DNA of 59,120 bases from an uncultured Nitrosopumilales archaeon (GCA_964533695.1 CAZHNH010000112.1:1-59120); one strand, 5' to 3'. Counted from the first letter of the stretch, positions 43,095-45,984 are shown. Made by a program: numbers and translations. Notes: generated by a model not told the origin, from the sequence alone.

Positions 43095-43565
43095 ATGGAA
43101 GAGAAGTCGGCAGGTGCCGTCGTATACAGGACGGCCAACACCGGCAACAGAGTCTACCTTCTCCTCCTCAACCTAGGGAGATGGGACTTCCCAAAAGGCA
43201 ATATGGAGACTAGCGAGACTGAGCTGCAGACGGCCATCCGAGAGGTAGGGGAGGAGACGGGACTTCACGAACTTGTAATCAGACCGGGATTCAGGAGGGT
43301 GATCGAGTACTTCTATCGGAGGGGGGGCAAAAATATCCACAAGCATGTAATCTATCTTCTCGCTGAAACGAAAACGGGGGATGTAAAAATCTCCTCCGAG
43401 CATCAAGCTTATGGCTGGTTCCCATACAACGAGGCAATCGCCCGCGCTTCTTATGACAACTCAAAGAAGCTCCTCCACGAGGCGGAGGGCTTCCTTGCGA
43501 GATATGCGGGGGGAGACCGCCCCATGATCAGAACTGAACGAGCGGGTGCCTCTCGCCCAGTCTGA
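43095..43565 (+). CDS. NUDIX hydrolase
   Basis: Nudix box GNMETSETELQTAIREVGEETG; 156 aa. Confidence 0.85.
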   Translation: MEEKSAGAVVYRTANTGNRVYLLLLNLGRWDFPKGNMETSETELQTAIREVGEETGLHELVIRPGFRRVIEYFYRRGGKNIHKHVIYLLAETKTGDVKISSEHQAYGWFPYNEAIARASYDNSKKLLHEAEGFLARYAGGDRPMIRTERAGASRPV

Positions 43566-44304
43566 CAACTTTGATGTAGTGATAACCCGGCTCGTCGGTT
43601 CGCTTTACGAAGGCAGATTCGACGATCTTGTCGTAAGAGTACTTCACGAACCCGGTAGGTGACTCATTGGTGCGAGTGTAGAAGAAAATAGATGCCTCCT
43701 CGTAGTCATCAATCCTGGCGAAAGCTCCGACTACCCAGGCCGATCCATCTTCGAAGGAGAAGAGAGGCAGCGGCGGCTCTTCGAAGAGAGTCTTATACGC
43801 TCCGACCTTTACTATGCTGGGGATATTCTCGACCTCGACTGACATGAATTTGTCGGGGAACTCTTTCTTTCCTTCCAGCGGTTCTGGCATTTTCTGGACC
43901 CTGATCACAGGAGCATAAAGATAGGAAGCATTGCTTGCGGTAGGGACGAGTTGGACCTCCTCGACCTCACCGGCAATTCTGTATGCGAGGAACTCATCGA
44001 CAGTAGAAGAATCGAAGTAATAGAAGACTGGAGTCCCCATGAAGAGGTCTGCCTGTGCCGCAATCCTAGTTCCACGCCCTTGTTTGAAGGCGAATAGAGG
44101 GAAAGGAGCCCTCTCGAGGAAGCACGAAAGTCTTCCCAGTTCCATGAGCGAGTGCAACCTGACGTAGCATGCGCCGCCGATTCTCTGCTCTTCCTTCTTT
44201 GGCAACGCGAGCGTGTCCGCGCTGTGCCCGTTATAAGGTTGAGCGGCTTCAGGGCAAGGCCCTACCACAAATACCAGTTCCTCCCTCGGCTTGGATGTGA
44301 GCAT
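43528..44304 (-). CDS. hypothetical protein with internal duplication
   Basis: Two related roughly 60-aa segments: PFPLFAFKQGRGTRIAAQADLFMGTPVFYYF and PLPLFSFEDGSAWVVGAFARIDDYEEASIFFYT. I use the ATG at 44304; the ORF track extends to 44367. Confidence 0.5.
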   Translation of the reverse strand: MLTSKPREELVFVVGPCPEAAQPYNGHSADTLALPKKEEQRIGGACYVRLHSLMELGRLSCFLERAPFPLFAFKQGRGTRIAAQADLFMGTPVFYYFDSSTVDEFLAYRIAGEVEEVQLVPTASNASYLYAPVIRVQKMPEPLEGKKEFPDKFMSVEVENIPSIVKVGAYKTLFEEPPLPLFSFEDGSAWVVGAFARIDDYEEASIFFYTRTNESPTGFVKYSYDKIVESAFVKRTDEPGYHYIKVVRLGERHPLVQF

Positions 44305-44701
44305 CTGGCGTGACGAAACGTACACGGACCTGGTCGACGCTGAGAAAAGGATTGACCGGCTGATCAAGGAGATCTCAGGAGAGCCAACGTCTGACCAGCT
44401 CCGGTCGGTTTGGCGGGCTTATCTTGAAGTTGAAAAGAGCATCCTCTTCATTAAGGTCGAAATCGACGAGGAGAATCCAGGCAGATTTGTCAAGTGGCGG
44501 GCATACTTAGTACCGGATGAAAGGCAGGCGCTTCAGTTCGCAATCAAGGGTCTGACCAAAGGGAGAGAGAATTTCGTGGCGGGGGATTACAAGGGGTCGC
44601 TTCATGACCTCCGCGAAGCTAGAAATTATCTAAGAGTCCTACTTAGGGCCAAACGCGTCGCAAGAAACAAGGCGGCAAGGAATCTCAGTGTGCCCGGCTA
44701 A
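44291..44701 (+). CDS. hypothetical all-helical protein
   Basis: 136 aa with a TTG start (the start is uncertain and overlaps the divergent gene start by 14 nt). The sequence is charged and helical. I recognise no family. Confidence 0.4.
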   Translation: MDVSIWRDETYTDLVDAEKRIDRLIKEISGEPTSDQLRSVWRAYLEVEKSILFIKVEIDEENPGRFVKWRAYLVPDERQALQFAIKGLTKGRENFVAGDYKGSLHDLREARNYLRVLLRAKRVARNKAARNLSVPG

Positions 44702-44722
44702 CAGGTTGGACGCCTGGGTGTC

Positions 44723-45160
44723 TTAGGTTGCCTTCTTGGCACGCTGCTTCTTCGCGGTTTTCTTGGCTGGTTTTTGTTCCTCCTGTTCTTGTTTGGCCGC
44801 CGGCTCTTCGGCTCCCTGCGCTGCGCCTTCCTCCTTGGTCGCGGAGGTCTTCTCTTCAGTCTTCGCTTTCTTCTCAGCTTCCTTCTTCTTTTCTTCCTCT
44901 TCTTTCTCGCTTGGTTCGATCTCTTGGATAGTGAGTTCACTTCCCGCAACGAAAACGCGGTATCTCTGCTTCACGCCTTTCATGTGCATGAACCGCTTGA
45001 TGTATGTCTTTACGTGCCTCGGTCGTACTCCCTGTTTTATTGATTCGTCCTCGACCTCTATCACGTCGCCTGATAATGAGGGCTTTGCCCCGACTCTGGG
45101 CTCCAAGAAAGACGCCAGATCTTCCTTCTGGTCCTTGAGTGTCCCGACGTTAATCTTCAA
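44723..45160 (-). CDS. small basic protein with eL22-like core and Lys/Glu-rich C-terminal tail
   Basis: 145 aa. LASFLEPRVGAKPSLSGDVIEV...RPRHVKTYIKRFMHMKGVKQRYRVFVAGSELTIQEI aligns by eye with the eukaryotic eL22 core ([25 protein letters not shown]...[34 protein letters not shown]). It is followed by an acidic and then basic low-complexity tail. Confidence 0.6.
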   Translation of the reverse strand: MKINVGTLKDQKEDLASFLEPRVGAKPSLSGDVIEVEDESIKQGVRPRHVKTYIKRFMHMKGVKQRYRVFVAGSELTIQEIEPSEKEEEEKKKEAEKKAKTEEKTSATKEEGAAQGAEEPAAKQEQEEQKPAKKTAKKQRAKKAT

Positions 45161-45201
45161 CTTGGAACACCCATTCCTTTTAGCAGTTATAACGGTTGTT
45201 G

Positions 45202-45984
45202 CTACTTCCCGTGCCGCCTGGTCCGTCTTTGATACGTCCTTATCGCCCTCATCAGGTCAATCTTGCGGAAGGCAGGCCAAAAAACGTCCATGAAGACGAG
45301 TTCAGAATAGGCGCCCTGCCACAGTAGGAACCCGCTCATCCTCTCCTCGCCCGATGTGCGGATGATTAGCTCTGGCTCTTGGTTTGGGAGATATGATGTG
45401 TAAAGTCTCCCGCCAATCGTATCTTCTGTGATTTCCTCGGGTGAGAGCCGACCGGCCTTGACATCTTGGGCTACCGCCTTCACCATGTCCGTTATCTCTG
45501 CTCTGCCTCCATAAGCCACTGCTATGTTCAGATAGTGATCCTCGTAGGCCGACGTCTTTACTTCTATGGCCGAAAGAAGGTCGCGGACTGATTGCGGAAG
45601 AAGGTCAAGCTTGCCGATGGCTCTTACCTTGACTTTGTATTTAACAATCCTCTGGTCGGAAAGCAGGCTCGCTAGCCGATGCTCGATCAGAGCAAAGAGT
45701 TCCAGGAGTTCTTCGACGTTTCTCTCGAGATTCTCCGTGGAGAGTACATAAAGTGTTACGGTTCTTATCCCAAGCTCGTGGCACCAGTCTAACAGTTCCT
45801 CGGCCCGGTTCGCGCCCTCTTCATGTCCTATGCCGTTGGCGAGGCCTTGGCTGGCTGCCCACCTTCTGTTTCCATCTAGGATGATGCCTACATGAGATGG
45901 GACCGGTTCGGCCTGGACTTGTGCGCTTAGCCTCCCTTCGTAGAGTCTGTAGGCTCCTACGACTCGCAGGATTGAGTCTAGCAT
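45202..45984 (-). CDS. uppS: cis-prenyltransferase (undecaprenyl/di-trans,poly-cis-polyprenyl diphosphate synthase)
   Basis: HVGIILDGNRRWA, LYVLSTENLER and RTSGEERMSGFLLWQ motifs. Confidence 0.9.
   Translation of the reverse strand: MLDSILRVVGAYRLYEGRLSAQVQAEPVPSHVGIILDGNRRWAASQGLANGIGHEEGANRAEELLDWCHELGIRTVTLYVLSTENLERNVEELLELFALIEHRLASLLSDQRIVKYKVKVRAIGKLDLLPQSVRDLLSAIEVKTSAYEDHYLNIAVAYGGRAEITDMVKAVAQDVKAGRLSPEEITEDTIGGRLYTSYLPNQEPELIIRTSGEERMSGFLLWQGAYSELVFMDVFWPAFRKIDLMRAIRTYQRRTRRHGK

Follow-up and report, generated by a model that had tools for sequence, protein, structure and literature searches.

The gene at positions 44723-45160 (minus strand) of the window, by which we mean the whole stretch of 59,120 nucleotides that was analyzed, encodes a protein of 145 amino acids (145 codons plus stop) that we judge, with a probability of roughly 0.95, to be homologous to the eukaryotic ribosomal protein eL22. 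We place the figure this high because the sequence comparisons and the predicted fold agree. The host is a Nitrososphaerales (‘Thaumarchaeota’) archaeon and not an Asgard archaeon; therefore, eL22 is distributed more widely among archaea than published papers state. Since a few proteins of Bathyarchaeota are already called ‘L22’ in databases, what is new is the divergent, tailed clade that lies below the detection threshold of the current family model, how broadly the family is distributed, and how far this departs from the literature.

A conserved gene with a TTG start and a lineage-specific tail

The initial annotation described the reading frame as a small protein with a Lys/Glu-rich tail, and the frame proved to be real: it starts with TTG (45160-45158, minus strand) and has conserved counterparts among hundreds of metagenome proteins from Nitrososphaerales. 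Of 66 related loci, 43 use TTG as the start codon and 23 use ATG. A search with residues 1-85 retrieved 457 homologues at E ≤ 0.01; those with a named source belong to metagenome bins of Nitrososphaerales or Thaumarchaeota. Not one of the 457 carries a precomputed Pfam domain; most are labelled ‘hypothetical’, and some were given the automatic name ‘sRNA-binding protein’ by JGI. In an alignment of 34 sequences, 36 of the 145 columns were invariant, marking the N-terminal domain as nearly frozen. These homologues and invariant columns set the frame apart from a chance ORF. The other ORFs that share its bases (44698-44949 on the minus strand; 44728-44931, 44736-45293 and 44774-45043 on the plus strand) most likely arise from the repetition of Lys and Glu codons.

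The eL22-like domain comprises residues 1-82 (44915-45160, minus strand), the segment to which the fold and profile matches to eL22 apply. Its motifs are FLEPRVG...GDVIEV and RPRHVKTYIKRFMHMKGVKQRYRV, followed by a beta hairpin and then an acidic run. Residues 83-145 (44726-44914, minus strand) form a low-complexity tail rich in Lys, Glu and Ala, which begins with the acidic run and closes with the basic motif AKKTAKKQRAKKAT; its 63 residues include 17 K, 16 E and 12 A. The tails of 65 relatives have a median length of 66 aa and consist of 29% E, 25% K, 15% A and 11% P, and 47 of the 65 end in a KKPRAKKKK-type motif. Across the 34 aligned sequences the composition of the tail is kept and its sequence is not. 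Relatives of 80-110 aa in other lineages lack the Lys/Glu tail, and we read this Lys/Glu/Ala/Pro-rich segment as a lineage-specific extension.

Profile comparisons connect the window clade to eL22

Neither the whole protein nor the N-domain alone matched PF01776 (Ribosomal_L22e; curated gathering cut-off, 23.6 bits), even at E ≤ 10. Single-sequence searches of Pfam and NCBIfam, and of the PDB with phmmer, returned nothing or low-complexity noise, and a six-frame PF01776 search of the organism’s own genome gave no match. When a profile of the whole protein was compared with the PDB, it found three matches only, all of them plant eL22 (E 0.17-0.31). A profile of the 82-aa N-domain, built from window-clade sequences only (A2), had eL22 as 37 of its 38 PDB matches, with a best E of 0.002 and the alignment running over residues 14-80; the eL22 chains that it matched come from animals, plants, fungi and protists.

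Searched against 1.84 billion representative proteins, A2 retrieved 95 at E ≤ 0.001, five of which pass the PF01776 cut-off (A2 E of 2.7e-5 to 1.7e-4). P0212, listed by NCBI as ‘60S ribosomal protein L22 [Candidatus Helarchaeota archaeon]’, reaches 35.1 bits with PF01776 and has an A2 E of 1.7e-4, and the cluster represented by P0197 includes a protein named by NCBI ‘60S ribosomal protein L22 [Candidatus Bathyarchaeota archaeon]’. The window domain aligned with both by BLASTP (E 7e-8 with 30% identity over 57 aa for P0212; E 1e-13 for P0197). In the extended family, 45 of 79 members matched PF01776 at E ≤ 1 (best, 1.8e-8), and most of the matching members that were examined singly fall below the curated cut-off. 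An alignment of the Pfam-type group from which window-clade sequences were left out (A4) found eL22 in all 55 of its PDB matches (best E 4.6e-10), and hhalign of A2 against A4 gave a probability of 99.7% (E 1.2e-26, 83 columns). Falling short of the PF01776 cut-off places the window clade beyond the reach of the current Pfam model; it does not make the clade unrelated to eL22. In the profile comparison with PF01776 that had been proposed as a check, the single sequence finds no match, and the window-clade profile, which does better, reaches eL22 in the PDB, PF01776-positive archaeal proteins and, through hhalign, the Pfam-type group; the proposed kinship with eL22 is supported.

The eL22 motifs that the initial annotation had recognized by eye are present, and they are placed where HMMER aligns eL22. 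Within the window clade, R48, K51, K55, R56 and F57 do not vary, and R68 and V69 vary little or not at all. The pattern of the basic helix 2, R-x-[VL]-K-x-x-[IV]-K-[RK]-[FY]-[LM], is kept and is followed by an R-V strand; these elements align to the eL22 motif KRYLKYL.KKYLKK...RV, which is the best-conserved part of eukaryotic eL22 as well.

The predicted domain has the eL22 fold

The AF2 model has a pLDDT of about 90 or above over residues 1-80; residues 86-109 are predicted as a low-confidence helix, and the remainder of the tail as disordered. The top 50 PDB matches found by Foldseek are chains of eukaryotic ribosomes, and those whose molecule names were checked are eL22. All 50 have a probability of 1.0, with TM-scores relative to the target mostly of 0.53-0.69, and their E values are 1.7e-3 and weaker, so that no match reaches the tool’s 0.001 line. 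A VIA-align scan of 48,161 representative chains, which is independent of Foldseek, placed eL22 in all of its top 13 positions (Z 11.2-7.9, rmsd 1.9-2.9 Å over 71-88 residues, most of them over 77-79). The best superposition, with a Z of 11.2, has an rmsd of 1.9 Å over 79 of 82 residues. The next folds are unrelated and plait-like, with a Z of 6.2, and eL22 stands 1.7-5 Z units above them. The structure prediction that had been suggested as a check thus favors eL22 over all other folds.

By structural alignment, the domain is 10-22% identical to eukaryotic eL22, which belongs to CATH class 3.30.1360 (PMC11354259). Such low identity, along with the blank single-sequence searches, would suit a protein that is unrelated to eL22 and whose likeness to it had arisen by convergence or chance on a common alpha/beta-plait-like fold. 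We consider this very improbable, because the profiles are specific to eL22 (37 of 38 and 55 of 55 PDB matches), the hhalign probability and the pairwise E of 1e-13 tie the domain to a PF01776-positive protein and its group, and the margin of eL22 over other folds holds while 79 of 82 residues are covered.

Compared with eukaryotic eL22 (RPL22; PF01776), the window protein shares the fold and the order of secondary-structure elements (Z up to 11.2, about 2 Å over 77-79 residues), and it has the same basic helix and R-V strand, with an acidic stretch right after the domain in both. Both proteins are small, have a single domain and are encoded outside ribosomal operons. Unlike its eukaryotic counterpart, the window protein has no N-terminal lead-in and no 6-10-residue insertion before helix 2, lies below the Pfam threshold, and bears its own 63-aa Lys/Glu/Ala tail with a basic end.

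eL22-family genes are common outside Asgard archaea

Archaeal eL22 has been described as confined to Asgard archaea, where its presence is cited in support of the link between Asgard archaea and eukaryotes (PMC8997704, PMC4571567, bioRxiv 10.1101/2021.04.02.438162, bioRxiv 10.64898/2026.05.20.726491), and it is counted among about a dozen eukaryote-specific ribosomal proteins. In the literature on Thaumarchaeota, Bathyarchaeota and TACK archaea that was covered, which takes in few subscription journals, we found no report of eL22 outside Asgard.

The initial annotation had offered two possibilities, that the lineage of the host is itself of interest or that eL22 is spread more widely in archaea than assumed. 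An Asgard host is contradicted by the relatives of the window gene, which carry the NCBI names Nitrososphaerales archaeon or Thaumarchaeota archaeon; the wider distribution is what the genome surveys support. Within the class, A2 matched 3 of 3 genomes of the host’s own family, and 1 of 1 and 4 of 10 genomes in two families of other orders; it matched none of 180 genomes of a large sister family (f2), which are presumably ammonia oxidizers. A wider profile (A3) was run on 401 sampled genomes of the window’s phylum, which, judging from NCBI names, corresponds to GTDB Thermoproteota. It matched 93 of the 401, about 73 of them strongly (E < 1e-7) and spread over many families, and many other families, large ones among them, had no match to it in the genomes searched (for example 0 of 16, 0 of 17, 0 of 23 and 0 of 24 genomes). 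With PF01776 itself, 33 of the 401 genomes score above the curated cut-off, at loci that A3 also marks; 22 of 25 genomes in one family (f26) are among them, and no control genome matched PF01776 at E ≤ 0.001. Homologue searches were narrower in what they returned: with A3, only the same Nitrososphaerales clade, and with the Helarchaeota eL22, only that protein itself. eL22-family genes are common outside the Asgard archaea, and the family is not restricted to Asgard archaea plus eukaryotes.

If eL22 is common in Bathyarchaeota-type archaea and Nitrososphaerales, it loses its value as a signature shared by Asgard archaea and eukaryotes, and its origin shifts deeper into the archaea. Current family models miss whole clades; every close relative of the window protein is called ‘hypothetical’ or bears an unrelated automatic name, and none carries a Pfam domain. 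The practical gain is modest and consists of improved annotation.

Subfamilies and positional orthology

We built a tree of 129 domains over 86 columns, in which 62 of 124 forks stay open, and used it for broad clusters only. Cluster III contains Pfam-type proteins, including the Helarchaeota sequence. Cluster II contains the window clade together with short relatives of 82-100 aa, one of them named ‘Nitrososphaerales archaeon’. Cluster I proteins bear PY[FL][FY]P or HGW/SWGL motifs at the C-terminus. Clusters II and III join with a support of 82, apart from the second-copy paralogues; where a genome has two or three copies, these belong to clusters III and I, and the window genome and its close kin each carry a single copy.

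In a genome of another order of the same class (G003), uppS, purA, an 87-aa cluster III gene and a homologue of orf279, a neighbor of the window gene, follow one another on one strand. The cluster III gene thus occupies the position of the window gene, which points to positional orthology and to the window protein as the diverged local form of the eL22-type gene. Sharing its position with the Pfam-type gene in this way argues against the window gene being a side paralogue.

The Asgard protein P0212 is a direct sequence relative of the window protein and has a domain of comparable length; it passes PF01776 and has no tail, whereas the window protein is tailed, sub-threshold and from Nitrososphaerales. 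The Bathyarchaeota-type proteins of the P0197 cluster, whose gene is single-copy like that of the window, are also close (hhalign 99.7%, pairwise E 1e-13). Unlike the window protein, they are 87-100 aa long without a charged tail and reach the PF01776 cut-off, and in some Bathyarchaeota-type genomes a second paralogue is also present, marked by an aromatic motif at its C-terminus.

This third eL22-like subfamily consists of proteins of 100-133 aa with conserved aromatic C-terminal motifs, of the HGW/SWGL type in L100-L104 and L091 and of the PY[FL][FY]P type in L078, L083, P0183, P0187, P0194, P0198, P0202, P0206 and P0209. Some f26 and f44 genomes have it as their second or third copy, and in f16 and f56 it is the sole copy.

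Family f2 has a conserved protein of about 122 aa in which an acidic N-domain is joined to a C-terminal C2H2 zinc finger (CxHCG...HxxxH). It is encoded on the minus strand at L096:2932-3294, L097:2914-3285 and L099:2923-3291, and is also found in L098 and L118-L130. Its N-domain aligned with A4 at an hhalign probability of 92%, and the top 13 VIA-align matches of its model are all eL22 (Z 11.0-7.2); the residues of the basic helix are lost, and the surroundings of its gene have no synteny in common with those of the window gene. This protein accounts for the weak A3 matches in f2, which were considered as orthologues of the window gene and were ruled out by their architecture, their charge and this lack of shared synteny. 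Because paralogues and an acidic zinc-finger derivative exist, an eL22 fold is no guarantee of a ribosomal role.

A ribosomal or an extra-ribosomal protein

Eukaryotic eL22 is a small, globular, non-essential protein that aids 60S assembly, especially in the cold, and it sits on the outer surface of domain III of 25S rRNA, close to the tunnel exit and between eL31, eL38 and eL19 (bioRxiv 10.64898/2026.05.20.726491). By homology with it, the window protein is probably a genuine constituent of the ribosome, in the large subunit. Like eL22, it would be a large-subunit protein encoded by a single-copy gene outside operons. It might bind the outer surface of 23S rRNA domain III near the tunnel exit, beside eL38, eL31 and eL19, and might aid the folding or stability of that domain, with the tail exposed on the solvent side or running along rRNA as many ribosomal-protein extensions do. 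If this is correct, the archaeal ribosome of these abundant soil and sediment lineages would have one more ‘eukaryotic’ protein than assumed.

In favor of a ribosomal role, the window clade shows no variation in the helix and strand that eL22 conserves best. We also looked for the proteins that would be its neighbors on the ribosome. An eL38 homologue is encoded in the organism’s own genome, outside the window (G000:C116:9-161, plus strand), where it scores 27.3 bits, just over the Pfam cut-off, at the very end of a contig. When family f20 is excluded, eL38 is found in 48 of the 52 sampled genomes with a strong eL22-like match; in f20 itself, the eL22-like gene occurs in 15 of 17 genomes and eL38 in none of the 17. 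The co-occurrence is suggestive, being neither strict nor free of confounding by shared descent. eL31 (PF01198) was not found in the organism’s own genome, the assembly of which is 86% complete. The genome was also searched for amoA (PF12942), which was unmatched there and likewise in the control genomes. Against a ribosomal role, a core ribosomal protein would not usually start with TTG or carry a Lys/Glu tail, and the absence of a translation gene context and the existence of non-canonical forms in the family count against it.

A different reading is that the protein is an eL22 homologue that acts away from the ribosome as a free RNA- or DNA-binding protein, either an RNA chaperone or a nucleoid- or chromatin-associated protein. 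Its charged tail with the basic end would then be the main part that contacts nucleic acid or undergoes phase separation. The tail, rich in K, E, A and P and ending in KKPRAKKKK, resembles the tails of chromatin proteins; its composition is kept and its sequence is not. Paralogues have other C-terminal modules (PY[FL][FY]P, HGW and, in ammonia oxidizers, the C2H2 zinc finger), and no lineage examined has the gene in a ribosomal context. The automatic JGI label on some members, a weak indication, agrees, and eukaryotic eL22 is itself non-essential with known extra-ribosomal roles (bioRxiv 10.64898/2026.05.20.726491). However, the gene is single-copy and apparently the positional orthologue of the Pfam-type gene in the sister order, and the most conserved element of the protein is precisely the basic helix that it has in common with ribosomal eL22, with R48, K51, K55 and R56 invariant. 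The gene context also weighs less than it might seem, since many small ribosomal proteins of eukaryotic type are encoded outside operons in archaea. On balance we regard a free binder as unlikely and prefer the ribosomal role.

Drosophila eL22 has 299 residues, with the eL22 domain at 192-296, and likewise combines the domain with a long low-complexity extension, rich in Lys, Ala and Pro. That extension is histone-H1-like. It is N-terminal and basic, whereas the extension of the window protein is C-terminal, rich in both Glu and Lys, and of independent origin.

Evolutionary origin of the archaeal family

Our tentative reading of the family’s history, which we rate a little short of even odds, is that eL22 was a ribosomal protein in the common ancestor of TACK/Thermoproteota and Asgard archaea, and that a split into subfamilies, losses in thermophiles and remodelling in ammonia oxidizers followed within Thermoproteota. 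On this account eL22 would not be an innovation of Asgard archaea and eukaryotes. Thermoproteota would possess at least three subfamilies, namely the Pfam-type proteins, the Lys/Glu-tailed proteins of Nitrososphaerales and the paralogue with an aromatic C-terminus, and eL22 would have been lost from many thermophilic lineages. The form in ammonia oxidizers, an acidic eL22 fold with a C2H2 zinc finger, would have taken on a new, non-ribosomal role.

The patchy distribution, with many families of the phylum lacking any match (0 of 16, 0 of 17, 0 of 23, 0 of 24), could also arise if the family were not ancestral to the phylum and had been acquired by some Thermoproteota through horizontal transfer from Asgard archaea, with later divergence; the one named Asgard sequence is nested among Thermoproteota in the weakly resolved tree. 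We consider such a transfer unlikely, since the family is broad and deeply diverged in the phylum, with three clusters over many families, and since synteny is kept across orders. It would leave the function of the protein unaffected.

Locus, putative promoter and gene neighborhood

The upstream neighbor of the gene is uppS (45202-45984, minus strand), which encodes a cis-prenyltransferase (PF01255 Prenyltransf, E 3.7e-71) and is separated from it by a gap of 41 nt. It had been stated at the outset that the gene adjoins uppS and lies outside a ribosomal operon, and this was confirmed: no ribosomal gene is adjacent, and no ribosomal or translation gene is near the eL22-like gene in the window or in the other lineages examined. 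On the other side lie orf136 (44291-44701, plus strand; 136 aa), which is convergent, and orf279 (43528-44367, minus strand; up to 279 aa), which is co-directional; both are conserved and belong to no Pfam family, and both are kept in most of 66 related loci. As listed, orf136 and orf279 overlap by 77 nt, and therefore the true start of orf279 is probably further downstream than listed. A homologue of orf279 is found in the same position in L071, from a genome of another order. Other neighbors in the window encode a DUF373 protein, a thiolase, a NUDIX hydrolase and a myo-inositol-1-phosphate synthase. Nearly all of the 66 loci have the same order, namely DUF373, uppS, eL22-like gene, orf136 (convergent), orf279 and NUDIX. 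The 66 loci come from species-representative genomes, all of them metagenome-assembled genomes (MAGs) of uncultured Nitrososphaerales or Thaumarchaeota from peat, soil, groundwater and similar habitats.

The gap after uppS (45161-45201) and its counterparts in L001-L066 contain a strongly conserved aacaaccgTTATAAc-type element. In the window this includes a TATA-box-like TTATAA at 45187-45192 (minus strand), 27-32 nt upstream of the start codon, and in nearly all 66 loci (c)gTTATAAc or ATATA stands about 27-33 nt from the start, often with a GGGG or GAGG run 3’ of it. We infer from position and conservation that this is a compact archaeal promoter placed right after the uppS stop codon; the gene would be expressed from a TATA box of its own, and its leader would be very short. 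A scan for sigma-70 promoters and terminators was set aside as not meaningful for an archaeon.

Short, nearly identical contigs from the peat metatranscriptomes of two studies fall on the eL22-like ORF and on orf136/orf279, where carry-over of DNA may have contributed. They cover small shares of the stretch, come from two peat sets only, and leave uppS and the DUF373 gene uncovered. These contigs weakly hint that the eL22-like ORF is expressed and do not give an expression level.

Across the lineages examined, the neighbors of eL22-like genes are uppS, purA, guaA, hisS and unrelated genes. Three families, f9, f10 and f38, have purA, which encodes adenylosuccinate synthetase, directly upstream of the eL22-like gene; the coordinates given for this link, all on the minus strand, are L071:1740-2744, L072:1871-2890 and L088:1771-2766. 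In f56, the eL22-like gene is 3’ of the gene for the C-terminal subunit of GMP synthase (L083:1933-2919, minus strand). The recurrent link of the family is with purine-nucleotide genes rather than with ribosomal operons.
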